In this document: positions 2,585 through 43,475 of the stretch, one piece after another | Layout: every line of letters begins with the position of its first letter | How positions within the stretch are numbered: position 1 is the stretch's first letter | Source: a virus | Taxonomy: Duplodnaviria > Caudoviricetes | Virus record (IMG/VR): IMGVR_UViG_3300012344_000001 | Location: 1 to 64,000 of that record | Direction: 5' to 3' (one strand) | DNA length: 64,000 bases | The notes under the pieces: generated by a model | Database searches by the model: none | Seen by the model: only the letters and a program-made list of their open reading frames with translations | What the model was told of the DNA's origin: nothing | Position numbers and translations under genes: made by a program

Positions 2585-3085
2585 TTAGTGCAGATAAGCC
2601 TTCAGGAAGGCTTCGCCATAGGAAGACATATACTCGACATGCTTCTTGTCAGTGGGGTCACCAACGTTAGGAACAACTTCCTTAGTGACGGTGTTCGCCA
2701 GACAGACGAAGTTGGTCGCACCATCATAAATGGTGAACAGGATGCCGTCGTCAGAAGACGCGGTGCAGTCCTTGTAGTAGACATCCATGCCGGGAACCTT
2801 GACGTCGCCAGCCGCCTCGTTGATAAAGGCGAAGTTGTGCTTGGGTGCAGCGACCTTACCACCAGTGTTCTTCATGGAAGCGAAGTAGCCACGGTCGTCA
2901 TAGGTAATCTCCCAGCAGGGGTCAACCGTAATAGTCTTGCCAGCGCGCTCGGGATAGCGCTTATAGGTCGGGGCGATAATAGCCAGCTTGGTGTGCGCCT
3001 TGTCCATAGTGCAGTCAGTCATTTCGATAGGCATACCATCGGACGCGATACGAGTAAGAATAGCCATGTTTAGAATCTCCTTCAA
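2585..3085 (-). CDS. Hypothetical protein, independently transcribed (moron-like)
   Basis: Has its own consensus promoter (3120-3148) and terminator. Probable start MAILTRI at 3067, after a GGAG RBS. Confidence 0.7.
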   Translation of the reverse strand: MKEILNMAILTRIASDGMPIEMTDCTMDKAHTKLAIIAPTYKRYPERAGKTITVDPCWEITYDDRGYFASMKNTGGKVAAPKHNFAFINEAAGDVKVPGMDVYYKDCTASSDDGILFTIYDGATNFVCLANTVTKEVVPNVGDPTDKKHVEYMSSYGEAFLKAYLH

Positions 3086-3119
3086 AATATAATTTCAGTG
3101 GACTACCACCATTGTTTGT

Positions 3120-3148
3120 ATTATAACACAGACTTTAACATTTGTCAA
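3120..3148 (-). promoter_or_regulatory. sigma70/sigmaA promoter
   Basis: Exact TTGACA-N17-TATAAT. Confidence 0.85.
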
Positions 3149-3513
3149 GTCTTCATGATATAACAAAGCGCGTAGTACGGCGGAAGTGCCGAAGTCGAAG
3201 CCGTCACCTGTGGGCCAGCTTCAACATCGCCAATCTGCGCAGTCGAAGAACCGCCACCAGTCGCGCCAACGGCATAGGTGTTCCCTGCGCCAATCACAAA
3301 GCGATTGCGAAGGTCGGGCGTTCCATTCGTGCCGTCGCACAGCGAAAAACCGTCGGGAATGGTTGCAACAGAACCCGACCACATAATAATTGCACCGTTC
3401 GGGACACTGCTGCCGCTACCGCCAGAAAGGGCAGCGATAAGCAAATCCATCTTTGCTTCGAAAGACGAATTTTTCAGTAAATCAATCGTTGTTGCCATCG
3501 TTAATCCTCCCAA
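3145..3513 (-). CDS. Tail collar domain protein
   Basis: GAIIMWSG...IPDGFSLCDGTNGTPDLRNRFVIGAG and LPPYYALCYIMK motifs. Confidence 0.8.
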   Translation of the reverse strand: MGGLTMATTIDLLKNSSFEAKMDLLIAALSGGSGSSVPNGAIIMWSGSVATIPDGFSLCDGTNGTPDLRNRFVIGAGNTYAVGATGGGSSTAQIGDVEAGPQVTASTSALPPYYALCYIMKT

Positions 3514-3779
3514 ACAAGACTTAGGCTGTTGTCAGCGTTTTTGACAAGCGAATAAGGAACAGCGTCCGCCTTGCCGGAAATAAGGGTTAGCATGGCTTCG
3601 TCGGTAAACGGAAGCTGCGAATACTTCTTCGTTCCATCGCCAACCTTATAACGAACTTCGCCTGCGGACGTATCGACAATGATAATTTCACCGTCTAAAA
3701 GAACTGGGTCATTTTTAGTCCAGTTTGCGCTTGTGTCACGCTTATTTTGAATACGCGCATTGTATGTTTTTGTAGCCAC
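3501..3779 (-). CDS. Short tail-fibre protein (Mtd_N/hyaluronidase-type N-terminal domain only)
   Basis: RIQNKRDTSANW..NDPVLLDGE...KVGDG..YSQLPF motif. Confidence 0.75.
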   Translation of the reverse strand: MATKTYNARIQNKRDTSANWTKNDPVLLDGEIIIVDTSAGEVRYKVGDGTKKYSQLPFTDEAMLTLISGKADAVPYSLVKNADNSLSLVWED

Positions 3780-3840
3780 AATAACCCTTCCTTTCTTTGG
3801 AATTGGGCGCCATCAAGAGACGACGCCCATTCCGTCAAAA

Positions 3841-5412
3841 TCAGATAACAGTGTTGGAAGTGCCGCAGTTGAAGATGATGTAGTCGCCGGTGGACTGAAT
3901 GGCATCATTGATGTTGCCAGACTTACCAATGGCGCTGACAGCAGTCTCATCAATCTTCTTGGCGATTTCGGTAGCATTGGCGTTAGCCTTAGCCTGCGCG
4001 GCAGCAGCAGCCTTGTTCGCGCCATAGACCGTAGCATCGCCAGCAGCATCAGCATCACTACCAAGCACGCCAGCAGCAGCACCAGCAGCATCAAACGCGC
4101 TGGTAGCAGCATAGGCGGCAGAACCAAGACCCTTAACAGCGACATCGTCGCCACCGACAGCAATAGTGCCGTTAGCAGAACCCGTGGCGATGTCAGCCTT
4201 CTGGAGCGCGGTGCCAGCCTTGCCAATCGCAGTCTGAACGTCGTCGGCAAGCTTCGCAAGGGTGATGCCCTTGTCGGTCACGGTCACGCTAATCTTGTTG
4301 TCGCTGGAAATAGCAATCTTGACGGCGTCGTTCGCACCAGAACCAGAAGTATAGACGTCGACAAGGTCAGCAACGTTCAGGTAGATGTGGCTTTCGGTAC
4401 CAGAACCAGCCTGCGTGTCGTAAGTGTTGACGGTAAAGTCGATATACTTGGTGCCAGCGGGGAACCCAGACGGGTCTTCGTCGCCAGTAGAAGTCTTAAC
4501 TTCCGCAGACTTCACAAGGTAGTCCTTCGGAATGTTAATCTTTTCACCAACGCCCGTGCCATCCTTCTGAAGCTGATAGGTAGCCAGATAGCCAGCAGTA
4601 GCGGTTTCAAGCTTGGCAATAGTGTATTCAGCGGCGGCGGGAACGGTCACAAGCAGACCAGCGGCAGACAGGGATGCGGCGTTGCCAGCGGCGGGGTCAA
4701 GCTTGATGCCAACAGTGGGCGCGGTCGCAGTACCAGCGACTTCGATACCCTTATTGGCAGTAGCAGCAACGGAAGCGACCTTAGAATCAGCAAGCGCACG
4801 CGCACCGTAAACCGTGGCTTCAGTGGAAGCATCTGCGGCAGTGCCCTTGACCGCATCAGCAGCACCAGAAACATCATAGGCGCTGGATTCAGTGTATGCG
4901 GCAGAACCGAGACCTTTAACAGCAACATCAGCGCCGTTGAACTTAACGGTACCATTGGTGTCGCCAGTCACAAGCGTACTGGCAGGAATTTCGATGGGGT
5001 CACCAACGTTAGTCCAAGTAGTCGTACCCTTTTCCTGCGACTGAAGCTGGAACTTGCGCGGATTGGTTTCGTCGACAACAATCTGATACTGGGTGTTGGT
5101 GTCCTGAATCTGACCGGAAATATAGGCGTCAAGACCAGTGATTTCGTCGGCGGAATAGGTCGGCTTCGTAGCCGCCTTCGCCCAGTCATAGATGTCAGCA
5201 GCAAGACCGCTAACAAACGGAAGCGCACTATACTTGCTGGTGCCGTCGCCAACTTTCATAATGACGGCAGGAACCTGCTCAATACCGTCCTTTTTGGTGG
5301 GAATAGTCGCAATAGCAACTTCACCCACCAGAAGAACGGGGTCGTTAGCTGTCCAATTTGCGTAACTGTCGTATTTCAGCGAAATACGAGCATTAAAATT
5401 CTTAGTAGCCAT
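3841..5412 (-). CDS. Tail/head fibre protein with Mtd_N-type N-terminus
   Basis: Same NW..DPVLL.GE..KVGDG motif; internal repeat NGT...G.DVAVKGLGSAAY twice. Confidence 0.75.
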   Translation of the reverse strand: MATKNFNARISLKYDSYANWTANDPVLLVGEVAIATIPTKKDGIEQVPAVIMKVGDGTSKYSALPFVSGLAADIYDWAKAATKPTYSADEITGLDAYISGQIQDTNTQYQIVVDETNPRKFQLQSQEKGTTTWTNVGDPIEIPASTLVTGDTNGTVKFNGADVAVKGLGSAAYTESSAYDVSGAADAVKGTAADASTEATVYGARALADSKVASVAATANKGIEVAGTATAPTVGIKLDPAAGNAASLSAAGLLVTVPAAAEYTIAKLETATAGYLATYQLQKDGTGVGEKINIPKDYLVKSAEVKTSTGDEDPSGFPAGTKYIDFTVNTYDTQAGSGTESHIYLNVADLVDVYTSGSGANDAVKIAISSDNKISVTVTDKGITLAKLADDVQTAIGKAGTALQKADIATGSANGTIAVGGDDVAVKGLGSAAYAATSAFDAAGAAAGVLGSDADAAGDATVYGANKAAAAAQAKANANATEIAKKIDETAVSAIGKSGNINDAIQSTGDYIIFNCGTSNTVI

Positions 5413-10412: not shown

Positions 10413-10723
10413 TATTCAGACACCTCCTCGGCAACGGTTTCATCAGCCGGAATGACAGTATCGGTCATCATTATAACATAATCAAGGTCAGCGCGCGCGG
10501 CGTTGATGCGCTCATTGATTTCGTCAATGCCCGCTTCGGAAATCACAACCTTCGGGCAACCCTTCAGCTTGCCAGCGTCAAAGCTATAAGCAACCGACTT
10601 AAAGGCAACACCCTGCGCGTCTTCCTTATTGGTGGGAACAAAACAGCCATTAGAACTGCGCTTGATATAGTTGAGTTCTTCGGCGTAGCCAAGGAAGTTT
10701 CCGTCAGAAAACAACTTATACAT
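10412..10723 (-). CDS. XkdW-like tail fibre assembly protein
   Basis: ADLDYVIMMTD C-terminal motif; precedes the XkdX-like gene. Confidence 0.55.
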   Translation of the reverse strand: MYKLFSDGNFLGYAEELNYIKRSSNGCFVPTNKEDAQGVAFKSVAYSFDAGKLKGCPKVVISEAGIDEINERINAARADLDYVIMMTDTVIPADETVAEEVSE

Positions 10724-11885
10724 TATAGAAATCCCTCCTTCTAATTGTCAATAAGTCATCATATCTAAAACCAAACGTTTTAACAAACAGCCGTTTCAGT
10801 CTAAAAGAACGGTTGTTATCATTAAAGTTGTCAAAATATGATATTATAGAATTCATCGAACAGTAAACATCTTCATATTTCATCTGCCCGCTATCCACCA
10901 TGCGCTTAAAGGCGCGAATTTTCCTTGCGGCGCGTCTATACGCCGGCTTACTTCCAAGCGTTTTAACGCCGCCAGTTTCAGTAAGCCGGTAGCGTATTTT
11001 ACAATACCGGAAAGATTTTGTAAGCTTTACATAATACGATTTGTCGCGGTTTACCTTTATTCCAAGTGATTCAGCAAAAGATAAAACCTTCATACGAATA
11101 TCCTGCGGATTCATCGTCGGTGGTATTATGATATAATAATCGTCCATATAATGACCACAGCCCTTAAATCCACATTGACACGTTAAATAACAATCGAGTT
11201 TCCATGGAAAGAAAATCATTTCCGCTTGACTTGGTTCTACGCCAAGCGGCATACCGAATCCAGAATTGTTGTTAAATCCAACAACATAATCACATAGTTT
11301 TCGCAGTCTTTCGTCAAAAATCAATTCTTTGTGATTTTCGTATATATTTTCGTGCTTTGCATTTGGGAAAAATTTCTTAAAATCAATTAGAAGCACCCAA
11401 CCTTCACGACCGTACTTCTTGAAATGTTCGCGCAAATCTTTCTTCAACTCATTTGAACTGAAGTGGAAACCTTTTCCTTTTTGACTTGCTCCGTTATTAT
11501 AAATCATCATTGGCGTATACAACGGCAAAAGAATATTCTGCGTGATAGCTTTATGTATTTGCCTATCAACAATTTTAGGAGCATCGATATCGCGCGTCTT
11601 TCCGCGTTCGGTCAGGACAAATCTGAAGTAGTCACCGCTTTTCCATTCGTCGTTTCTAACATTCGCCAAAGATTTTGCGGTAGTAGAAAACAAGTGCAAT
11701 TCAAAGTTTTGCACACTATGTTTCCACCGAACGCCATTACAACATTCTTTGCCACATTTATACATATCACCAAACGTAAACGCGCCATCAATTCCACCAA
11801 TGGATTCACAGCGCTTAATTTTGTTTAACAGACGTTTTTCTTGGCGTCTCTGATAGCGCGCTTCGCGCCTTTGCATACTGTTCAT
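10716..11885 (-). CDS. DGR reverse transcriptase
   Basis: ERGK.R, DFKKFF, GMPLGVEPSQ and YMDD motifs; no maturase/HNH extension. Likely start MNSMQRREARYQRR at 11885 (ORF track extends to 11957). Adjacent to TR and avd. Confidence 0.95.
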   Translation of the reverse strand: MNSMQRREARYQRRQEKRLLNKIKRCESIGGIDGAFTFGDMYKCGKECCNGVRWKHSVQNFELHLFSTTAKSLANVRNDEWKSGDYFRFVLTERGKTRDIDAPKIVDRQIHKAITQNILLPLYTPMMIYNNGASQKGKGFHFSSNELKKDLREHFKKYGREGWVLLIDFKKFFPNAKHENIYENHKELIFDERLRKLCDYVVGFNNNSGFGMPLGVEPSQAEMIFFPWKLDCYLTCQCGFKGCGHYMDDYYIIIPPTMNPQDIRMKVLSFAESLGIKVNRDKSYYVKLTKSFRYCKIRYRLTETGGVKTLGSKPAYRRAARKIRAFKRMVDSGQMKYEDVYCSMNSIISYFDNFNDNNRSFRLKRLFVKTFGFRYDDLLTIRRRDFYNV

Positions 11886-12109
11886 AAATAAAATACCCCG
11901 CGTACAAGACTTGGAATAACCAATCCCGCATAGAACACTTGCATAATCGTTACACATGAAATCGGATTTGCCTTCCGACCATGCAAGAAGCGTCCGTGCA
12001 ACGATATCGCGGGGTTGTTTTGGAAGGAATACACCTTCACGGGAAATGTTTCTCCTTTAATAAGGGTCGTAAAACTTTCAAGAAGTTTTTGATTAACCCA
12101 ATGCTATCG

Positions 12110-12231
12110 AATCCACTGCGAGCCCATTCGAATTATTAGCGTTGTTATTGTTGGCAGTACCGTTGGTGTTCACATTGCAGAAATTGTTGGTGTTCGTCGC
12201 ATTCACGGAACGCTCCCACCAATACACGGCA
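12110..12231 (-). repeat. DGR template repeat (TR)
   Basis: Aligns without gaps to 12900-13021. All 30 mismatches are at TR adenines (36 A in the TR). Rich in AAC/AAT codons. Confidence 0.97.
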
Positions 12232-12277
12232 AACACGCCCACGGGCACAGAGATACAGAAACATACCCAAATAAGTC

Positions 12278-12832
12278 TTAAATACTTAATTCAAATTCAA
12301 AATCAGATATACGCATTTGACCTTCAAGTTCTTCTGAAAGTTCAATATACTTCTTTTCTTCTTTTTCAAATGTGCGCACCTTGTCGTGCGCAGTCTTCTT
12401 TACTTTCAAAAGAATGGCAACTTCCTTATTAAACACTTCACTGACCGCCACACACATTTTATCCAATTTTTCAACAGCTTCAGTTTCAGAAACTGATCTA
12501 CCGTTAGACTTAGAAAACGCACCTTGCGGATTAAGTCTTAGAATGCCATAAATATGTGAATACATAACATCCAAAGCATTTAACGAACCAAGCGCCTTTA
12601 TTAAATAAAATTCGCGCATCTTTGCATATTCGTAACAACTTGGATAGGCATTATGCGCCTTAATGCAACATTCCAAAACTTCAGATGCCAGACTTATTGT
12701 TCGTTCTGATAGAAGACGCGAATATCTGGCAGACAACCGCGATACAAAATTAACAGTCCACGAAAACAGGTCGTCGGCAAGTTTAATATATTCTATGGTA
12801 CTTTCGTTTCTTTTAGGTCTTAAAACAGACAT
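12278..12832 (-). CDS. avd: DGR accessory variability determinant (Avd-like four-helix bundle)
   Basis: MSVLRPKRNES N-terminus, helical, lies between the target gene and TR/RT. Confidence 0.8.
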   Translation of the reverse strand: MSVLRPKRNESTIEYIKLADDLFSWTVNFVSRLSARYSRLLSERTISLASEVLECCIKAHNAYPSCYEYAKMREFYLIKALGSLNALDVMYSHIYGILRLNPQGAFSKSNGRSVSETEAVEKLDKMCVAVSEVFNKEVAILLKVKKTAHDKVRTFEKEEKKYIELSEELEGQMRISDFEFELSI

Positions 12833-12846
12833 GTAAGAATCCTTTC

Positions 12847-12862
12847 GCGCGCTTTCGCGCGC
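12847..12862 (-). promoter_or_regulatory. DGR target-recognition hairpin downstream of VR
   Basis: GCGCGC-GAAA-GCGCGC on the coding strand about 27 nt after the target stop codon; a GC stem with GRNA loop as described for phage DGRs. Confidence 0.75.
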
Positions 12863-12888
12863 TGTGTATTAAGTGTTGTTTGACTTCG

Positions 12889-13908
12889 TCAAACTTTGAA
12901 AGCCACTGCGAGCCCAAACGAAAGATAAGCGTAGGCAAAGGAGGCAGCACCGGAGGCGGCCACAAAGCAGAAAAGGCTGGAGGTCGCCGCAAACACGGAA
13001 CGCTCCCACCAACACACGGCAGTCGCCGTCGAATCGTGACGGTACTTGACCTTCGAATTACCGGCGACATAGTAAGCGTACTGCTGTTGCTTGGTCTGTT
13101 CGGCTGCGTTTGCATAGCTACGCGCGCCAAAAATTTCAAATTCAGCAAGCAGATAAAGTTCATCCTGCGTGGCGGTGACATAGCTTGCAGCAGTAGATGA
13201 GCCACCGGTATTGTCTGTATAAATGGTCGTAGTTTTCAGCACCGACTGCAAATCGCTGGGCAACGCTGCCTTGACAACGGGTAACGTGTTGTTGCGCATA
13301 TTGCAGGATGCCCAGCCGCCGGTCGTACTATTGTTATTGTTCATATTAAACCACTGACCGCTGGATTTTTGCGAATTATATCCGCTGTCGCACAGCGCAA
13401 CATCAATACCACTGGAAGCGGCAGTCTTGAATCCACCAAAAGCGATACCAGTACCTTCAACAGAACTGTTGTGGTCAAAACCAATAATATAAACATAGGT
13501 AGAATAGTTGCTTAACGTTAATCCATCGGACACTTTACCGTTAATCGTAATTTGTTTAGTGTCACCGACCGCCCAATAGTTGGATGCGACACCAGAATCA
13601 GATGCCTGTTTAACCTGCGCCCACGTTGCATTATTGAGAACGGCAGGAATAAACTCAAGCGCAATAAAGTAAACTTCGATAGCGGTCACTTCAACCGTCT
13701 TTTCAACGGTCGTTCCGGCGCTCACACCAGTAACCGTCCACGTTCCATACGCTGGGATAGCAAACGACCACGTGCCAGAAGATTCTTCCGCAGTCAGAAC
13801 AGTAGAACCCTTCTTGCAGGTAACAGTGCTTCCTGTTGGCGCAGAAACAACAATAATGGGTGACAGGCTTGCGCCGCCACCACCAGTACCCTGATTAAAG
13901 ATAGGCAT
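12889..13908 (-). CDS. DGR target protein (DUF6273/CLec-like C-terminal domain; tail receptor-binding candidate)
   Basis: C-terminal VR encoding AVCWWERSVFAATSSLFCFVAASGAASFAYAYLSFGLAVA; located in the tail module. Confidence 0.92.
   Translation of the reverse strand: MPIFNQGTGGGGASLSPIIVVSAPTGSTVTCKKGSTVLTAEESSGTWSFAIPAYGTWTVTGVSAGTTVEKTVEVTAIEVYFIALEFIPAVLNNATWAQVKQASDSGVASNYWAVGDTKQITINGKVSDGLTLSNYSTYVYIIGFDHNSSVEGTGIAFGGFKTAASSGIDVALCDSGYNSQKSSGQWFNMNNNNSTTGGWASCNMRNNTLPVVKAALPSDLQSVLKTTTIYTDNTGGSSTAASYVTATQDELYLLAEFEIFGARSYANAAEQTKQQQYAYYVAGNSKVKYRHDSTATAVCWWERSVFAATSSLFCFVAASGAASFAYAYLSFGLAVAFKV
12900..13021 (-). repeat. DGR variable repeat (VR)
   Basis: Adenine-specific divergence from TR 12110-12231. 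Confidence 0.97.
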
Positions 13909-22601: not shown

Positions 22602-23528
22602 TCAGTCGTTCATCGTGGATTCCATTAGTTGCAAATCTGCATATTCATTATATAACAATCCGCTCAAATCGTTATACACATAAGAAGAAGAATGATATGA
22701 CATAAGTGCCAATGGTGTTTTAATAAATTCGTCTATAAGGCAAGAAATCAATTCCGGGCTTTCGTCAATGTCTTTTTCCCACAAATACAATATCTTTGTA
22801 TTTTCTCTATTTTCAACATCTTCTTTCTTTTTTCTATCTTTTTCAACAACACCATCTGTTATTTTAGAATCGCTTGGACTTATATGCCTTCTTACGTCAC
22901 AATGGAAAAATCCGCCCATAATTTCTATAAAAAGATTATATTTTGGCAAATATATGTCCATCGAATATCTTCCGCTTTTCTTTTCTGGTTCATATTCTAT
23001 CTTATTATCTTTTAATATGTTAAGGACTTTAATGTGTGGTTTAGTCATTGTTGCCTTATATACACCATCGTGTATGTTTTTAATTGTATTTTCAGAACGC
23101 AATATGCTAAAGCAGTCGTCTGAACAAGTTTTAACATTAGCATAATATGTGTGATACTTTTTTCCGCACACAACACAAACACGCTCCTTTTTTATATTTA
23201 CATTCATGGTTTTACAATCCTTGGAACAACAGACATGATTGCTTTTCAAAGACATAAATTCCTTGCCACATATAACACAATTTCTTGGCGTTCTATGCTT
23301 GTCCGCATAATCCCACCTACAATCAGTCGAACAGAACTTTAGTTCGCCGTCGTGCTGTAATCTTGTTCCCATATATTCTTTCCCACAGTTCGCACAAACA
23401 TTTTTGTAATATCGTTTCGGACGCCTTTCTTCGTGATATTTTTGATTGCATTTTTCGCTGCAAAATCTTGTTTTATTTTCATCTTCAACATGCTTCCCGC
23501 AATAAGCACAATTAAATCTATGAATCAT
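22602..23528 (-). CDS. Intron-encoded homing endonuclease: tandem CxxC..CS..C zinc fingers plus Vsr/DUF559-like (EDxHD-type) nuclease domain
   Basis: Four zinc-finger repeats; YSMDIYLPKYNLFIEIMGGFFHCD; low GC; stop codon overlaps the intron P7 strand. Confidence 0.8.
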   Translation of the reverse strand: MIHRFNCAYCGKHVEDENKTRFCSEKCNQKYHEERRPKRYYKNVCANCGKEYMGTRLQHDGELKFCSTDCRWDYADKHRTPRNCVICGKEFMSLKSNHVCCSKDCKTMNVNIKKERVCVVCGKKYHTYYANVKTCSDDCFSILRSENTIKNIHDGVYKATMTKPHIKVLNILKDNKIEYEPEKKSGRYSMDIYLPKYNLFIEIMGGFFHCDVRRHISPSDSKITDGVVEKDRKKKEDVENRENTKILYLWEKDIDESPELISCLIDEFIKTPLALMSYHSSSYVYNDLSGLLYNEYADLQLMESTMND

Positions 23529-23548
23529 ATTATCCTCCTTTCTATTGT

Positions 23549-23577
23549 ATTATAACATAAAAAACAATATTTGTCAA
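23549..23577 (-). promoter_or_regulatory. sigma70 promoter inside TMP intron driving the endonuclease
   Basis: Exact TTGACA-N17-TATAAT followed by an AAGGAGG RBS. Confidence 0.85.
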
Positions 23578-23713
23578 TAGTGAGCGTATAATGAAATCCT
23601 TCGACCCTGTTACCCCTTTCGCGTGGGGCGTCCAAGCATCCCTTTCGGGAATCATTAGAAGAAATTTTTCTAAAGCGGTTTATTTATTATGCCGCTTCGA
23701 GAGCATAAAGTTC

Positions 23714-25531
23714 ACTCTCGCCAACAACAGATGCGCTTCTTTGCGTGACTTCGCGCACCGTAGCAACATAGCCAAGTAAGCGTTCAAAAGATACGCCAGA
23801 CTGGGCCGCGACATTCGCAGACCTCTGAAGCGCAATCGCCAAATCGTCAACGCTTGAAGCAGATTCAATATCGACCTGCGACATGGCATCAACAACGTGC
23901 ATGACGTCCTGCGTTTCCATCTTATAGCCGTTCAGAACAGACGTCAAATATTCAGTTGCTTCCGCCGATTCAATAACGCCAATTCTGGACATAACCATAG
24001 ACGCCCTAATCAGTTGCGTTGCTTCTTCTGCGCTTTTACCCTGACGAAGCCAAGCGTCTGCACCTTCTGCAACATCTGTCACCGTAGCCGACATTTCGAC
24101 CGCCAAATCAGCATATTCATTGCGCAACTTTTCGGTCGCTTCAGCGGTTCCAAGCGTAACAAGCTGGATGCTTGTAAACGCCTTATTAAGTTCCTCCGCT
24201 GTTTGTATAGACTGCTTAAATTTGCTTACGGCAAACCACATTGCACGATAAACGGACGTATAGTTAATGATACGCGCAGTAGCGTCAGCAAAACCGGCAG
24301 AAATGTTGCTTAAAAGACTGTTTTTCTTCTTCCACGCCTTTTCGGTTTTATCCAGCGACTGTTTAAGCGCTTCTTCGCTTTTCGTATACGCGACGTTAGC
24401 ATCATTCAGTTTATCGGTATTTACAAGAAGTCGTTTTGTTTCTTCCGCTTCTTGCCGCTTTTCTTCCACCACGGCTTCCGCCTGAATAACGGCGGTGGTG
24501 CGCAATCCATGCGATTCCAACTGTGCAAGTTTCAGTGCGACTTCGGCATCACGAACATCCTTAAGCTGTTCTTTATACTTGCTTAAATTATTGCCCGCAT
24601 TTCCAAGTTCGCCTTTAGTCCTTGACAGCACTTCCTGCCAACGTTCAAGATTCTGTCTTGCGTCTGGCATTTCCGCATTGAACGATTCCATTTCATAGGT
24701 CATGTTCTTCCATTCCTGTGCATAAGAAGAACCTGCCTGTGATAACTGATATCTATTTTCTAAGTCTCTTACTTGTTTTTCAAACTTCTTAAATTCATCA
24801 CGAAGCCTTTGCGTTCTATCTTGAATCTGCGTGGATGTATCAACCCATTGTTTGCCGTCCCATTCTTGGAACACGCGAACCAGACGTTCGCCTTCGCCCG
24901 CAAGTTCAACAACACGTGTCCTTACGCCCGAAATAGATTCCGCATATTCCTGAATGCCAACGACCTGCGCAGAACCCTTTCCGCCCAGTTCGCCCATCGT
25001 GCGATTGAAATGTTCAAGTTCATCAGAACTAAATGTGCGTTTAATCTGTTCACCCAAGTCTCGAACCTTTGCTTCGAGTTCATCAATAGCATTCGTCTTC
25101 GCTTCGCCTTCAAGCGTCTGCGCGGCTTCACGCATCTTCGCCTTCAAGTTGACATATTCGCTTTCAAGCTGTCGAACCTGCGCCGCGTGCTTTTCAGCCG
25201 CCTGTGTGAGCGATTCAATGGTGTTGCCAGTCTTAGCCAAGTCCGCCTTAAACTGGTCGGTAATACCAGTCATGTCGAACGCCTTGCCATACTGCTGACG
25301 CAAGCCGGCAATATCCTTGCCGACGTCCAACGTAGTCTTGCCAAGGTCGTTCATAATCTGCGCGTACTGGTTACGCAGCTTGGTTAGCGTCTGCTTAGGG
25401 ATTTCGGCATCCACCGCAAGCTTACCAACCACCTGATTTTGAAAGCGCTGTTCCCATTGCTTTCTAAGGTCTTTGTCCGCGTCCTGTTTAATTTCAGGAG
25501 CCGCTACAAATCTAAGTTCAAAATCCGGCAA
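23714..25531 (-). CDS. Tape measure protein, exon 1
   Basis: Coiled coil followed by the TMP core (LRQG, VD.ESASS..DLA.ALQRS, VTQRSASVVGES). Confidence 0.9.
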
Positions 25532-33918: not shown

Positions 33919-34449
33919 TTAGTCAACAACGGTCGCGACAACCGTGTCGATGAACTGGTAGCCGAACATACCGCCCATGCGGAAATGCTTCTGCGCCAGC
34001 ATCATAAGAGCAGACTTGGTGGTAGCAGTACGGGTCGCAGCAACCTTACCGGTATAAGCGCCGTCAACGGGCTCAATGTAGCTACCAGCAGCGAAAGCGC
34101 CGTCAATAACGTCAGTAGACAGTTCGAAATCAAGACCAGGAACCAGCATGATAGCAGTCACGACCTCGCCAGCCTGATAAACATACTGGGTGTAGTCGGG
34201 CCGACCCTCGGGACGACGACCGTCGGGAAGAGTCTCAAAACCGTCATTGATGATGATAGCCGCACGCAGACCAAGGTCGGCGGTAGCAGGCTGGGAACCA
34301 GTGTAGACCTGATAGTTGTCGGCGATGCTGGAATCAAGCGCCTTCAGCATGACGATATCGCCAGCGTGCAGGGTCTTGCCAGTGGGGACAGAAACCTTCT
34401 TGACAAGGTAATCAGGAACGCGAGGATTAGTCGCGCGGCAAAGATAATT
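33919..34449 (-). CDS. Capsid decoration/head protein (YonC-like position), exon 2
   Basis: Frame open from 34449 (NYLCRATNPRVPDYLVKK...) with no own RBS/start. Joins exon 1 ATG GCT to give 178 aa MANYLCRATNP... Confidence 0.85.
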   Translation of the reverse strand, partial: NYLCRATNPRVPDYLVKKVSVPTGKTLHAGDIVMLKALDSSIADNYQVYTGSQPATADLGLRAAIIINDGFETLPDGRRPEGRPDYTQYVYQAGEVVTAIMLVPGLDFELSTDVIDGAFAAGSYIEPVDGAYTGKVAATRTATTKSALMMLAQKHFRMGGMFGYQFIDTVVATVVD

Positions 34450-34580
34450 CCGTTGTGTTAGTCAAACTAACTTACTGCTTCATCGAGCTCTTTTTCGCAA
34501 AAGCTACTAAAGTCTTACAGCCCTTCACAGCATAGAGGTGCAACGACACCTTTAGACTGCAATCTTTTAACTTAGATTGC
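34450..34580 (-). ncRNA. Putative TnpB omega-RNA scaffold; guide would be the first ~16-20 nt of exon 2
   Basis: About 120-nt non-coding tract after the tnpB stop (contains AGGTG..CACCT hairpin), ending ...ACAACGG at the splice site. Position is as established for TnpB omega-RNAs. Confidence 0.65.
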
Positions 34581-35717
34581 ATATCTACTCAGGTTGATAG
34601 CAGCATTGTAATCACGGTCGATTGTAAAGCCACACACTTCACATTCGTACACGCGGTCGCCAAGTTTCAAGCTTTGCTTTATGTTTCCACAGCAAGAACA
34701 AGTCTTACTGCTTGGATAGAAACGGTCAGCTTGAACAAATTCAATCCCGCGCCATTCGCATTTATATCGCATCTGTCTGACAAATTCATGAAAACACTGT
34801 TCCTTAATTGCCACACCCAAATGCTTATTTTTCATCATGTCGACAACATCTAAGTCTTCCATTACCACCCTTGCCGGTAGTTTAGTAACCAAAAAATGCG
34901 TCGCTTGGTGAATATAATTCATGCGAATATTTGAAACGCGTGCATACAACTTACGAAGTTTTGCTTCTTCTTTCATAATATTATTCGTCTTTACAAACTT
35001 GTTCCCAACTCTGTTCTGTTCATATTTGCGCGAAATTGAACGCTGTATACGAACTATTTCCTTCTTCAACTTGCGTATCCGACAAGATTTGTTAATATTA
35101 TGAAATACGATTTGGTCTTCGTTAAATTCTGCCACCGCTAAATCTTTCAATCCAAGGTCTATGCCCATGCTTACATCCGTTAATTTAAGTGCTTGATTTT
35201 CGCACATCATGCCAAAGGACAGCATCCACTTACCATTCTTATTTGATATTCGTGGGTTTGTGAACTTGTGTCCTTTCCCCAAAGGCAATTCAAAGTCTGT
35301 TTTATAACGAACCTTACCAATTTTTTCTATTGAAACTTTCATATCTGAAAACCAGATATTTTCACGAATTGGAAATCTTAGCCCGTTCGACTTTCGACTT
35401 TTGAACTTTGGGTAACCGGATTTTTTATTAAAGAAATTTTGGTATGCTTTATCAAGGTCAAGACATATATAGCTAAGGCTTTTATTAGAAACGTCATATA
35501 ACCAATCGTGCAGACCATCGTTCTTTAATGGTTTAAGTAAGCTTATCATTGAAAATCCAGACAGATATTTCCCGCCATTTTTATACAGTTCTTGCTGGTA
35601 TGCCAACATATAGTTCCAGACGAACCTACAAGCACCCGCATGGCTTAACATCTTCTGTTCTTGTTCTTTTGTTGGGTATAACCTTATCTTATAAGATTTA
35701 ATATACATCGTTATCAC
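34572..35717 (-). CDS. tnpB: RNA-guided endonuclease TnpB (IS200/IS605/IS607 OrfB)
   Basis: KIRLYPT..Q HTH, RuvC-I GIDLG, RuvC-II MEDL, Zn finger CSCCG/CEVCG, RuvC-III DRDYNAAINL; catalytic triad intact. Confidence 0.95.
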   Translation of the reverse strand: MITMYIKSYKIRLYPTKEQEQKMLSHAGACRFVWNYMLAYQQELYKNGGKYLSGFSMISLLKPLKNDGLHDWLYDVSNKSLSYICLDLDKAYQNFFNKKSGYPKFKSRKSNGLRFPIRENIWFSDMKVSIEKIGKVRYKTDFELPLGKGHKFTNPRISNKNGKWMLSFGMMCENQALKLTDVSMGIDLGLKDLAVAEFNEDQIVFHNINKSCRIRKLKKEIVRIQRSISRKYEQNRVGNKFVKTNNIMKEEAKLRKLYARVSNIRMNYIHQATHFLVTKLPARVVMEDLDVVDMMKNKHLGVAIKEQCFHEFVRQMRYKCEWRGIEFVQADRFYPSSKTCSCCGNIKQSLKLGDRVYECEVCGFTIDRDYNAAINLSRYAI

Positions 35718-35924
35718 CTCCTCTTATTAGTTATAAGAGGAGACGGTGGGAACATACCCCACCATGCTTCTTCTCCTTTATCGGGTCGCTACCCCGTGAC
35801 ACTCCGTTTCGGAGTCTTTGCCTTTCGGCAAAGCGCAGACTATATCTTCATCCTTTCGGATGCCCACCACAGTCTTCGCCAATCGCTTGCGAAGCACTTA
35901 GTCGTTGAACCTTCTGCATTTTGC

Positions 35925-35981
35925 ATTATAGCATATTTTACAACGCTTGTCAATACTTTAGTTGTAAATATTTTATGAACA
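35925..35981 (-). promoter_or_regulatory. sigma70 promoter plus upstream direct-repeat operator inside the intron P6 loop
   Basis: Exact TTGACA-N17-TATAAT (35925-35953); TGTTCATAAAATATTTACAA at 35962-35981. Confidence 0.85.
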
Positions 35982-36195
35982 AAATACAGCTTGGCTGCTG
36001 ATTGCCCATTACGGGAAGCGTTTAGGGTTTAACCTTGCGCCATCCGGTATATTTTTTCTACTTTCGTCGCCATCACGCTTAGGATTTAACCTTACGTTGT
36101 GGCTATACCGGCTTTAGGGGTTTCCAGCAATTCAATGGGTATTTTTATCGAACACATTTCTGTGAACGTGACCTATCGAACACGATGGTTCATTA

Positions 36196-36201
36196 AGCCA
36201 T
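36196..36201 (-). CDS. Two-codon exon 1 (ATG GCT) of the decoration gene
   Basis: Preceded by a GAAAGGA RBS just after the scaffold stop; followed by TAA, the first intron bases. Confidence 0.85.
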
Positions 36202-36225
36202 AATAATTCAACATCCTTTCTTTAA

Positions 36226-40422: not shown

Positions 40423-41790
40423 TCATCTAAAGATTCGTCCGAATTTGTTCCCGACACGCACATTAGAAGAAAGGCTTCTGTTCATGCTTGAAATGGCGGA
40501 ATACATATCGTCGTCATTTAGTCCCTTCAGCAGTTCAGTGTCAAGAAGGGACGCGTAATAGTTTAAGTAAATCAGAGAAACAATTCGGTCTTTTGTCAAA
40601 CGTTTCGGTTCAACAAGTCGGAAATTACCACCGACAACATACACGGTAAGCGAAAGTGCTTCGTTGATAAGCTGCGTAGTTTGTTCAAACGGAGCAAGCA
40701 ACCAAGGCCTTCCGCCCCAATCGCCAACTTCGTCAGTGTAGAATCTGAAACCAATGTCCTTTGCGAAATCCTTTTCAACTTCGTCTGGCTGTTCAAGAAG
40801 TTTAATCATGCCGGTCTTCAATTTATCCTTAAAGATAACAGCCATCTTACTGTTTAATTCAGCGGTACCATAAATGGGATAAATGCAAGGAATCGCATTC
40901 GGATTGATGGTCTGTTGCATATACTCTTCATACTTGTGTGCGATTGTTTCATGATATGCAACCGTAATCGGCGGGTAATCAACACCACGGATGTTATCAT
41001 GAATGACGTCTGTCATGATATTGAAAATAGCATTGCCAAGATTTCGGAAGTCCATTACAAGCGTATCCGCTTCGAAATCCGTCATAATTTGACGGATACG
41101 AAGCGCCTGCGCAGGAGCGCCAACACCATTGGAGATTTCAGAATACACAATCTGCCGTTCGTATCCTTTTCCACGCTTCGGAATAAGTCTTGCAACATTG
41201 ATTGCAGTGTTATCCGAACCACGCGCAGCAGAAGAAGCCAAGTCGACACCAACCAGTCGTATTTCGCCCGGAAGCTTTGGCATACGATACTTTTGCTTTC
41301 CAGAAGCGACTTCTTCTGGGCGCTTTGGATAGAACGCTTGCTTCAATACACGCGCTTTATCAAAGTCTTCATAAGAAAAGAAGGCGTTTTCATCAATACC
41401 GTAGGGTATATTTTGATACTCGCATTGGAAGGATATTAGGTCAGAACTTTTTCGCTCCGATGCAATTTCACGCGGTGACTTGATTCCATGTTCCAAGCTT
41501 GTCAAATAGTCAAACGCCATAAACACAGTGCTGTCCTTAGACTGAATGCCAGTTTTATCACCATAAATACTAATAACAATCTGTTGAATCGTATAAGGGA
41601 ACCACCAGTTTATTTTAAGACCGGCAGAACTAATAGAAATCATTTTTGATTCTTCGGTTAAGTGACTATATTGCGGCAACCGTCGGAACGGAGCAGGTCT
41701 AACATAACGCATGGGGGAAACAACAGAATCAAGAAGGTCTTTGCGCTTCATACTGTTGCATTCTTCACGGATAATACAAGTTGCTCGATT
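40423..41790 (-). CDS. terL: Terminase large subunit, exon 2
   Basis: Walker B CIIREE, ISISSA, FQCEY, nuclease GVDLA..SD, KDR motifs. Confidence 0.9.
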   Translation of the reverse strand, partial: NRATCIIREECNSMKRKDLLDSVVSPMRYVRPAPFRRLPQYSHLTEESKMISISSAGLKINWWFPYTIQQIVISIYGDKTGIQSKDSTVFMAFDYLTSLEHGIKSPREIASERKSSDLISFQCEYQNIPYGIDENAFFSYEDFDKARVLKQAFYPKRPEEVASGKQKYRMPKLPGEIRLVGVDLASSAARGSDNTAINVARLIPKRGKGYERQIVYSEISNGVGAPAQALRIRQIMTDFEADTLVMDFRNLGNAIFNIMTDVIHDNIRGVDYPPITVAYHETIAHKYEEYMQQTINPNAIPCIYPIYGTAELNSKMAVIFKDKLKTGMIKLLEQPDEVEKDFAKDIGFRFYTDEVGDWGGRPWLLAPFEQTTQLINEALSLTVYVVGGNFRLVEPKRLTKDRIVSLIYLNYYASLLDTELLKGLNDDDMYSAISSMNRSLSSNVRVGNKFGRIFR

Positions 41791-42932
41791 CATATGTTAT
41801 CCTATTGGCTTTTTATCCAATAGTTCTTATAGTTGTAGTTCCTATAAGGTCGGCGTACCTTTTCACCTGAATGTCAGGGGCGGGGACTCTTGGTTGCATT
41901 ATATTCTGAATATCAGTTTCAGCAACTACGCTCTGCGTGTGAACACACTTTTAGATGCGTCCTTCCACTCGGATTAGCATTTCAGCCTTCCCGATTTCTT
42001 CCCCACTTTAGAAAAACTAAGTGTCACCACTTAGCGAGGCAATCGTTCAAGTACATTGTATTTTCCGTAAATATCAGCAAATCTGTTTCGCTTCCTATCT
42101 AAGAATATAGTAGAATCGTCGTATAGGAAGTGCATAAACATGTCTACATTCTTCATTCCACCAATCACAAGCCGAAGCGCAGCCTGTGTTCCGTTTAATC
42201 CGCAAATATATGAGCTAATACCAAATTCATATAGCTTGGTTCGCAAAGCTTCGATGAATTTTACAGAGGCGCAGCAGAAGTCGCACCGCGGGCACTTCCT
42301 TTGTTTGTTTTCACAAACACATCCGTCCCCGTCAAAAAATCCTCTAATGAAATGTCTAACCAAATCTTCACGAAGCGTTGGGAATTCTATGCACTTGCTT
42401 TTTCGTTCAATACATCCGTTTTTTATAAGGTCTTCAACCATTTTTGTGCAATATATGCGGATAAGACAGAATTTTGCAGGATTTCCACTAATAGCACAAA
42501 TAGTGTCGCCCAAAAAGACGGGAATATTGCCATCTATGCTTTTAACGAATTTGCGTAGATGGTCGCTATCTGATTGTTGTAGTTGAATACCAAGTTCACC
42601 TTGTCTTACATTCCCAGTTTCCGTTTTTTGAACACAAACCCATCCGTCGGCATACATAAATCCAAGCCAGTACGCTTTTTCTTCCGTATCTATAGTTTCA
42701 AAAAAGTCTTTATTATAATGATACTTGCTTTTCTTCAAACCAAGGCGATTAACCTTCAAGTCGATTGCCGTCTTCGTTCTTCCAAGCTTTTCACCCATTT
42801 CACGATAAGTCATCGTCTTATAATTTTCTTTAATGAAGTCTAATTCTTCATTTGTCCATTCGCCATTACGCATAACGAGTTCCTTTCATAAATGAAATTT
42901 AATTTCGTTGGCGAAGTAAATTAAATAAAATT
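41791..42932 (-). mobile_element. Group I intron in terL (1142 nt)
   Basis: IGS CGAUUGCCUC (42036-42045) is complementary to the ligated junction GAGGU|AAUCG with the U.G wobble. P3 GUGGGGA/UCCCCGC, P7 GCGUA/UACGC, terminal G at 41791. Restores DNSRG|NRATCIIREE. Confidence 0.92.
42031..42873 (-). CDS. Intron-encoded LAGLIDADG homing endonuclease
   Basis: Two motifs AYWLGFMYADG and HFIRGFFDGDG, plus an N-terminal HTH. Confidence 0.92.
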   Translation of the reverse strand: MRNGEWTNEELDFIKENYKTMTYREMGEKLGRTKTAIDLKVNRLGLKKSKYHYNKDFFETIDTEEKAYWLGFMYADGWVCVQKTETGNVRQGELGIQLQQSDSDHLRKFVKSIDGNIPVFLGDTICAISGNPAKFCLIRIYCTKMVEDLIKNGCIERKSKCIEFPTLREDLVRHFIRGFFDGDGCVCENKQRKCPRCDFCCASVKFIEALRTKLYEFGISSYICGLNGTQAALRLVIGGMKNVDMFMHFLYDDSTIFLDRKRNRFADIYGKYNVLERLPR

Positions 42933-43475
42933 ACCTCTTGAATTGTCTGACAATGATATAACCGTAATCTTCGAACCGTTGACAAACTCAACAATTCTAT
43001 TGTTTTCGTTCATCGTTATCTTTGTAATTTCACGCTGAACGTTCGGATAATCATCGTAAAACCCTTGAATCTTACCAAGGATAACACCTGCCTGCCCCTT
43101 GGTTGACGAAACAACAACAATTTCGCTTTTAGGATAAAGTGACGCTATGCAAATAGCACCAAGACCAACAATCCACGACTTTGCCGTTGCACGAGATGCG
43201 GAAATTGTAATTTCGTCCTTCGCACCAATTTCGTACAGCATCATCTTCTGATAGTCATGAAGCGTTTTAATCTGAAAGTAGTGTTCGGCGTATAACTGAA
43301 TGTTTCGCCGATATAGCGTAGCCCAGTCTTTAATTCGCTTCAAGCGGCTTTCGCTGATTTCCGTTTTCTTGATAATACCGCGTGGTCTTTTGCGGATGTC
43401 CGCAGACTTTTCGTTGCTACCAAACGGATTATAGTTAGTCGTGTTTCTCGCCATCGTCATCACCATCAACATCAA
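42933..43475 (-). CDS. terL: Terminase large subunit, exon 1
   Basis: L.DYQ adenine motif, Walker A ASRATAKS, F.NGS.I motif. Confidence 0.9.

Follow-up and report, generated by a model that had tools for sequence, protein, structure and literature searches.

What role does a TnpB nuclease retain in a virus that lacks a recognizable transposase, and why does its gene reside within a group I intron of a head gene? The question is raised by a stretch of 64,000 nucleotides (nt), hereafter termed the window, which corresponds to positions 1 to 64,000 of the IMG/VR virus record IMGVR_UViG_3300012344_000001 (Duplodnaviria; Caudoviricetes) and belongs to a virus record that is complete at 107,954 bp and has terminal repeats. 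Cas12 descends from TnpB, whose natural role has, to our knowledge, been demonstrated only as that of a transposase partner that restores the element once it has excised. In the viral self-splicing intron described here, no transposase is left, and selection maintains the nuclease. On sequence grounds, the element is a TnpA-less derivative of the group B (IS607) IStrons, and we consider it probable that it lives as a homing intron in the phage head gene; comparative and population data suggest that such homing occurs. If confirmed, the element would represent a natural RNA-programmed gene drive in viruses.

The boundaries of the element (Table 1) are set by comparison with phages that lack it. 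The intron interrupts a 178-amino-acid (aa) head gene after codon 2, and joining of the exon ATGGCT (36201..36196) to AATTAT... (34449 downward) restores the 178-aa open reading frame (ORF), with AATTATCTT... in frame with the ORF at 33919..34350. In 28 intron-free relatives, the site is uninterrupted at exactly the predicted junction, from which it follows that the element comprises exactly 34450..36195; this stretch is missing, exactly, from intron-free relatives whose flanks are 88-99.7% identical. While 27 of the 28 read ATGGCTAATTATCTT (ATGGCT/AATTATCTT, the slash denoting the junction), the remaining one, designated L014, carries two synonymous changes. The 27 alleles, which represent at least six protein variants and come from human or pig gut where sample names give the source, are identical over 49 nt of junction sequence and over the first 20 nt of exon 2. 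The IMG/VR phages L011-L013, for example, read ...TTATGGCT/AATTATCTTTGCCGCGCGAC with no insert, and the proteins of all intron-free relatives start with MANYL. The virus genome holds one copy of the element. The Rfam model Intron_gpI is matched over its full length (1-253) at 36205..35816, with a score of 85 bits. In the Rfam alignment, exon UGGCU and the intron bases UA pair with the internal guide UAGGUCA to form P1, with a U.G wobble at the splice site; the last intron base is G, and the spacer between P9 and tnpB is too short for any ORF. A preliminary description of the window had proposed a full ribozyme core that splits the gene after codon 2 and had predicted the ATGGCT/AATTAT junction, for which empty sites in related phages were to be sought; the full-length Rfam match and the 28 empty sites bear out both.

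Table 1. Coordinates of the intron, its parts and the adjoining exons (window positions, except where genome positions are stated)
Feature	Position	Strand	Description
Whole element	34450..36195	minus	Group I intron, 1,746 nt; starts UAAUGA, ends ACAACGG
Exon 1, ATGGCT	36196..36201	minus	Start of head (decoration-like) gene; also candidate transposon-adjacent motif
Group I ribozyme core P1-P9	35816..36195	minus	Rfam RF00028
Sigma-70-type promoter (predicted)	35925..35953	minus	TTGACA, 17 nt, TG-extended TATAAT; 12/12 hexamer matches
tnpB	34572..35708	minus	378 aa; IS607-type (ISFba1-like) RNA-guided nuclease by homology
Guide-RNA (omega/reRNA) scaffold	34450..34571	minus	122 nt after tnpB stop codon; ends ...ACAACGG at 34450
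5' hairpin loop CGUUG	34545..34541	minus	Within AGGUG-UCGUUG-CACCU hairpin
RAGATH-18 motif	34531..34472	minus	Rfam RF03064, 46.3 bits (cut-off 44.9)
Scaffold stem-loop SL2	After RAGATH-18 motif	minus	Short hairpin
CAACG, strand of pseudoknot PK2	34455..34451	minus	Complementary to loop CGUUG; final G at 34450
Exon 2 of 178-aa head protein	33919..34449	minus	In frame with exon 1; homologs 178 aa, MANYL start
First 20 nt of exon 2, AAUUAUCUUUGCCGCGCGAC	34430..34449	minus	Directly 3' of scaffold end; predicted guide and predicted target
Further tnpB genes, outside window	Genome 79059-80117 and 85157-86269	minus	L008:15059-16117 and L009:1157-2269

The tnpB start codon ATG is preceded by AGGAGG, and its product matches the Pfam families HTH_OrfB_IS605, OrfB_IS605, and Cas12f1-like_TNB. 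Its best solved relative, homologous over the full length, is PDB 8iaz_A (E 1.1e-70), which is identified as the ISFba1 IS607 TnpB because the residue offsets fit the published numbering and D371A is seen in the alignment (PMC11061315). The RuvC D/E/D residues (in GIDLG, MEDL, and DRDYNAA) and the two CxxC pairs of the zinc finger are intact and invariant in 32 relatives, in agreement with the preliminary description, which had placed a tnpB with an intact triad and zinc finger 3' of P9. It had also reported that neither the intron nor the window holds a tnpA of the Y1 or serine type, and this absence extends to the complete 107,954-bp genome, in which no Y1_Tnp or Resolvase match is found at E<=1; nor is there a tnpA remnant in the element. 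In five related 100-114 kb phage genomes from IMG/VR (those holding loci L011, L033, L039, L044, and L047), no small IS607-type serine recombinase was found; in one of the five, a Resolvase domain lies in an open frame of 563 aa, a length that matches a large serine recombinase.

What the nuclease could be guided to is specified by the end of its scaffold. IS607 TnpBs guided by RAGATH-18 RNAs are known, and for ISFba1 a pseudoknot, PK2, has been described in which the loop of a hairpin in the 5' flank pairs with the 5 nt before the last scaffold base (PMC11061315). Both strands of such a pseudoknot are present here, and among relatives they covary as CGUUA/UAACG, UGUUG/CAACA, UGAUG/CAUCA, and UGGUG/CACCA. 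In an alignment of 23 scaffold sequences, 97.5% of cells pair vs 31-49% in slid controls, compensatory changes are found in 18 of the 28 pairs, and PK2 is 100% paired with two covarying pairs. The covarying PK2 fixes the scaffold 3' end at the last intron base, so that the guide must be exon 2; what was earlier given as about 120 nt ending in ...ACAACGG at the 3' splice site can now be stated as 122 nt with a pinned end.

On this basis, the following mechanism would be predicted. Late head-gene transcripts would span the element, and the ribozyme would splice them to ATGGCU/AAUUAU such that the decoration-like protein is made. A second transcript would start from the host-type promoter in P6, lack half of the ribozyme and encode TnpB together with the scaffold joined to exon 2; as a transcript from this promoter lacks P1-P5, it would not splice, and scaffold and guide would stay joined. 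TnpB would bind the scaffold, with the first ~16-20 nt of exon 2 serving as guide. The phage's own copy would be spared, since there the sequence before the target is ...ACAACGG rather than ...TGGCT, the end of exon 1 and presumed transposon-adjacent motif (TAM). In an intron-free sibling genome in the same cell, TAM and target would be adjacent, the predicted cleavage target being ...ATGGCT/AATTATCTTTGCC... of the intron-free allele; this site would be cut and then repaired from the intron-bearing genome, and the repair would copy the intron together with nearby exon sequence into the intron-free genome. We infer cleavage, the TAM, the length of the guide, use of the promoter, and TnpB, as opposed to ordinary recombination, as the driver of the process.

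The predicted promoter lies inside an insertion of ~63 nt in P6 that is missing in four aligned relatives. Its hexamers are kept with a diverged spacer in two other elements, L112 and L127, the latter of which encodes a TnpB that is 66% identical and resides at a different site, and they are missing in 29 other relatives. For IStrons, a conflict between splicing and guide production has been described (PMC10690162), which the P6 promoter, if used as its position suggests, would sidestep; if confirmed, a promoter inside the ribozyme would be one resolution of the conflict.

Conservation at these several levels bears on the explanation, which we regard as very improbable, that the element is inert, a relic that is spliced out as a passenger and whose TnpB and guide RNA have ceased to function. 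In its favor, the scaffold lacks stem-loop SL3 (~42 nt in the ISFba1 and c-st scaffolds), which is missing in the whole sub-clade, with only 22 nt following RAGATH-18. Signs of decay are also seen in one sister element (L033:2000-3760), where the first intron base is G, not U, and the right end ACAGCGG breaks one PK2 pair. Yet tnpB is under purifying selection, with a ratio of nonsynonymous to synonymous substitution rates (dN/dS) of 0.096 at dS 0.84 in comparison with a second phage lineage (lineage 2; L112-L114, ~88% identical phage) and, for the sister clade, of 0.10-0.16; neither the catalytic nor the zinc-binding residues vary, compensatory changes occur within the scaffold, and the internal promoter is conserved in L112 and L127.

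An invariant intron in variable flanks is the pattern that a recently spreading insertion with co-conversion would give, and the intron-bearing contigs conform to it. At least 24 contigs encode the exact TnpB protein, which lies at this one site in 10 of 10 listed places, each from another sample. Among the window and 10 intron-bearing contigs fetched by exact TnpB identity, there are 0 variable sites in the 1,746 nt of the intron, whereas the flanks have 184 in 4,391 nt (4.2%), a density that would predict 73 variable intron sites; no flank segment as long as the intron has fewer than 35. The variable sites nearest to the intron lie at -29 and +111, and, depending on the contig, the identical tract ends between -29 and -268 on the upstream side and between +111 and +248 on the downstream side. 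The 90% cluster of the TnpB protein consists of a single sequence, and close variants are therefore missing from the collection. Lineage 2 carries the intron at the same site with the tnpB ORF intact; compared with the window, its flanks are 85-91% identical, the ribozyme 93%, tnpB 84%, and the scaffold 88.5%, such that its tnpB has diverged as much as the flanks. Within lineage 2, three contigs fetched via the exon-2 protein show 0 differences in the intron and 31-37 downstream.

The one intron-free sibling in the window's own lineage (lineage 1) is L014, whose alignment with the window spans 3,228 nt without gaps at 99.72% identity; pattern scans of IMG/VR and JGI metagenomes for further intron-free siblings of this lineage returned only L014. 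It has just two private differences, T>C at -1 (GCT to GCC) and T>C at +9 (CTT to CTC), both synonymous. Exon position -1 is the splice-site U and at the same time the final base of the presumed TAM, and +9 lies in the guide part for which single mismatches (positions 1-13) abolish the activity of ISFba1 TnpB (PMC11061315); by analogy, the L014 allele fits an escape allele. The differences of L014 further upstream (-241, -187, -70, -43, and -29) were considered as a cluster of repair-linked mutations, a reading that was rejected as these are standing polymorphisms also present in intron-bearing contigs.

Several observations weigh against homing driven by TnpB. The contigs having been selected by exact TnpB identity, an unbiased count is limited to the 609 non-coding nt and synonymous sites, and in the 609 non-coding intron nt ~25 variable sites would be expected and 0 are seen. 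An invariant insertion could also result from a recent sweep, that is, from ordinary recombination and selection. The possible escape allele is based on one contig, and many intron-free siblings in lineage 2, 99.7% identical to L112, keep a perfect target; the persistence of perfect targets implies that any drive there is incomplete. With respect to the nuclease, the TAM-contacting residues of ISFba1 are not conserved (K83 to S, N121 to E, N61/N62 deleted), and the SL3 that is missing from the scaffold is contacted in ISFba1 by the TAM-interacting domain (PMC11061315). An attempt to derive the TAM from the ISFba1 contact residues (K80, K83, N121, and N122) was abandoned, as relatives that uniformly have T at -1 differ freely at these columns; the alignment with the TnpB of the c-st IStron is likewise ambiguous at the TAM-contact columns.

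These population data also frame a second explanation, namely that TnpB is kept for interference without conversion, or for another RNA-guided role, and that the uniformity of the intron reflects ordinary recombination and selection. An intron endonuclease acting in phage competition has been documented (PMC11620839), and the survival of susceptible intron-free siblings at high identity in lineage 2 would be compatible with such a role, as would the presence of several TnpA-less tnpB genes outside introns in this genome and its relatives. The five related 100-114 kb genomes have 1-5 tnpB genes each, that of L044 showing four strong tnpB matches, and this phage group as a whole seems to be characterized by an accumulation of TnpA-less tnpB genes. 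Nevertheless, we judge this explanation unlikely: a scaffold that ends at the splice site leaves exon 2 as the only possible guide, the identical tracts reach varying distances into the two exons (29 nt or more upstream, 110 nt or more downstream), as repair from an intron-bearing template gives, and the catalytic residues are intact, unlike those of domesticated TldR-type relatives.

How the family reaches new sites is a separate matter. The TnpB family comprises 6,958 proteins at E<=1e-60, and the clade, represented by 486 IMG/VR loci, was encountered solely on contigs that are phage or phage-sized. In a set of 185,579 species-representative genomes, relatives at least 59% identical occur only on contigs of metagenome-assembled genomes (MAGs), the best two of which are phage-sized (~103 and 108 kb), and chromosomal TnpB relatives are at most 55% identical. 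Relatives interrupt differing phage genes, e.g. the 3' end of the terminase gene in L018 and L043. Where both junctions were read, the intron starts with UAA or UAG and ends with ...AAC(G/A)G, T is found at -1, and the 5' exon pentamer is complementary to the internal guide; about a dozen 5' junctions were read by eye, automatic calling over 80 loci being too noisy. Because the pentamer must pair with the ribozyme, its conservation is not assignable to the TAM alone. A 'TGGC' motif that appeared common to the 5' sides of L018 and L019 was discarded, as it lies inside the intron and the true splice sites, recognized by P1 pairing, are further upstream.

Five sister elements (L032, L033, L034, L037, and L039), which share 91-94% identity among themselves, are distributed over no fewer than four different sites; four of the five have a readable 5' junction, with the flank YGGCT and the internal guide UAGGUC(A/G). 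The family therefore also reaches new sites, for which reverse splicing guided by the internal guide sequence, illegitimate repair, or TnpA in trans are candidate routes. The preliminary description had left to be checked whether the intron occurs at the orthologous site or at scattered sites, and the answer is divided: this exact element occupies one site (at least 24 contigs, 10 of 10 listed places), while its sisters are found at at least four. L032 and L039 (93% identical) share the same 5' exon flank, …CCTTGGCT/, and continue after the 3' end with TCCAGTCTAA… and ACGACCCTGA…, respectively, which suggests a rearrangement or a divergent allele downstream of the intron; a strict pattern search of IMG/VR for an empty site of L039 found none.

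The sister elements are the strongest reason to consider that the window's element is an ordinary non-autonomous IStron, moved by an IS607-type TnpA supplied in trans by the host or another element, with TnpB serving only to restore the element after excision. Known IStrons often lack an intact tnpA (PMC4227781, PMC10690162), some route must have carried the sisters to at least four phage sites, and a bacterial host could provide the TnpA. However, the IS607 signature of identical core dinucleotides is missing, the left flank being ...GGCT and the right end ...CGG, and GG-core excision would be expected to yield ATGG+AATT in place of the observed ATGGCTAATT. The roughly dozen 5' junctions that were read end in U opposite the ribozyme guide, not in GG. 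Together with the restriction of the exact element to a single site, the confinement of relatives at least 59% identical to MAG contigs with a phage-sized best pair, and the absence of a small serine recombinase from six phage genomes, these features render an IStron mobilized in trans a doubtful explanation, and homing of a TnpA-less derivative continues to be the reading that we favor.

Among phage records, the best DNA match for both ribozyme and tnpB is the IStron of Clostridium botulinum phages c-st and D-1873. IStrons in C. botulinum phages have been described, some with a truncated or missing ORF A; those of c-st and D-1873 belong to group B (IS607) as CbISt3/CbISt4 (PMC4227781), and the CboIStron has been studied by Zedaveinyte et al. 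(PMC10690162). As in group B IStrons, the element consists of a 5' group I intron, an IS607-type tnpB after P9, and a 3' scaffold ending in ...CAACGG, with the element boundary coinciding with the splice site and exon 2 as the guide; ...GCAACGG is likewise found at the right end of the c-st IStron, whose 3' splice site also has the PK2-type pseudoknot. In contrast to group B IStrons, there is no tnpA or remnant of it, the 5' exon ends in U with a canonical U.G rather than in GG, the two ends share no core dinucleotide, and the element is single-site with a population signature of homing instead of multi-copy. Also unlike in these IStrons, the scaffold lacks the ~42-nt SL3 (22 nt after RAGATH-18 vs ~64) and a promoter is predicted in P6. 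The resemblance to ISFba1 (PDB 8iaz) encompasses the full length of the protein, the RuvC triad, the zinc finger, a RAGATH-18 motif after the gene, and PK2. The differences are that the flank here is TGGCT whereas the ISFba1 TAM is AGGAG or GAGGG (PMC11061315), that the TAM-contact residues differ, that SL3 is missing, that the apical stem of RAGATH-18 is shorter (60 nt vs 73), and that the element is embedded in an intron. TnpBs of this RAGATH-18-guided type have G-rich TAMs (AGGAG, GAGGG, or TGGG). If confirmed, the clade would offer compact TnpB variants with a short SL3-less scaffold and probably a new TAM.

The element also resembles phage group I introns with homing endonucleases (T4 td/I-TevI; PhiPA3 gp210, PMC11620839; and an intron of Enterocloster phage CB457P2) in that an endonuclease gene lies inside an intron of a conserved phage gene, siblings have intron-free cognate alleles, and identical exon tracts adjoin the intron. 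It differs from them in that the nuclease would read its target via an RNA guide, the downstream exon, such that target specificity would reset automatically at any new insertion site, and in that a single 3' end is contested by splicing and guide production. An RNA-guided homing function of TnpB is established for IS605 'transposon homing' (PMC10055086), and guide scaffolds overlapping a 3' splice site are known (PMC10055086, PMC10690162). A 2026 review further predicts 'non-restorative homing', in which intron homing could spread IStrons that lack TnpA, the targets including co-infecting phages (PMC13565253). The mechanism proposed here would be of this kind: TnpB would cut the empty TAM-plus-target site and repair would copy the element in. 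With phage IStrons lacking an intact tnpA (PMC4227781) and the predicted homing (PMC13565253) both in print, the arrangement is less new than first hoped. What goes beyond the prediction is natural comparative and population evidence for a phage clade, and within the set of papers searched, none was found on this clade or on natural evidence of such homing; the element is a compact TnpA-free IStron derivative, with a U-ending 5' exon, an SL3-less scaffold, and, in this branch, an internal promoter.

Related ribozymes evidently carry different nuclease cargo. In CB457P2 (L016; OP172754.1), a group I intron at 2946-4195 has a core 81.7% identical over ~150 nt and, where the window's intron has tnpB, a gene annotated as 'intron-associated endonuclease 1' (GIY-YIG). 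We give about even chances to the broader proposal that this clade swapped a protein homing endonuclease for an exon-guided TnpB, such that any chance insertion next to a suitable 5' motif would instantly become a homing site. If true, an exon-guided TnpB would explain why relatives are found in many phage genes and why a 100-kb phage can hold several TnpA-less tnpB genes; the intron would behave like a gene drive in wild phage populations, and resistant target alleles would arise in response.

The interrupted head gene lies between genes for YonD_N-like and YonB-like proteins, downstream of the portal gene, and its protein cluster comprises ~375 members. Judged by capsid, the closest cultured phages have Thomasclavelia ramosa as host. 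An AlphaFold (AF2) model was built of the intron-free homolog P0188 (12 differences in 178 aa from the window protein; 31 other homologs added), with a mean predicted local distance difference test (pLDDT) score of 86.6. The top Foldseek matches of the model are all auxiliary capsid proteins, the best being the capsid-stabilising protein of TW1 (E 1.2e-3), followed by those of T1, FCWL1, HFTV1, and Pam3. A decoration- or cement-like protein is thus moderately supported: the earlier label of 'capsid decoration' is upheld by fold, and there is no Pfam or PHROG match to support it. In contigs L024-L026 and L028, the region from +111 to +441 after the identical intron has ~50 differences in 330 nt (~15%) from the window phage; within one phage population, the exon-2 body is a mosaic made up of highly divergent alleles.

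The two further tnpB genes of the genome share 44% identity with one another and ~30% with the intron tnpB, and neither has a group I intron or RAGATH-18 match at Rfam gathering scores. The one at 79059-80117 follows almost directly after the stop codon of a 220-aa ORF, and no ATG, GTG, or TTG start was found for its conserved N-terminal region.

Elsewhere in the window, a LAGLIDADG ORF (42031-42873, minus; LAGLIDADG_3, E 5e-11) appears to split the gene of the terminase large subunit (region 40423-43475, minus) into an N-terminal piece at 42921-43475 with a weak Terminase_6N match and a 456-aa ORF at 40423-41793 that follows the LAGLIDADG ORF. A LAGLIDADG enzyme in another intron, as proposed in the preliminary description, is confirmed to this extent; the split would be a second intron, for which there is no Rfam match at the gathering score. 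A weak group I intron match (15.5 bits, below cut-off) at 23478-23723 (minus) lies between the ORFs 22602-23528 and 23687-25531, the former of which (308 aa) has an N-terminal treble-clef-like match, and this region may be a third intron with a Vsr-like enzyme. Finally, an Rfam RT-2 RNA (110 bits) at 11875-12101 (minus) lies beside a 413-aa ORF at 10716-11957, within the region 10716-13908.

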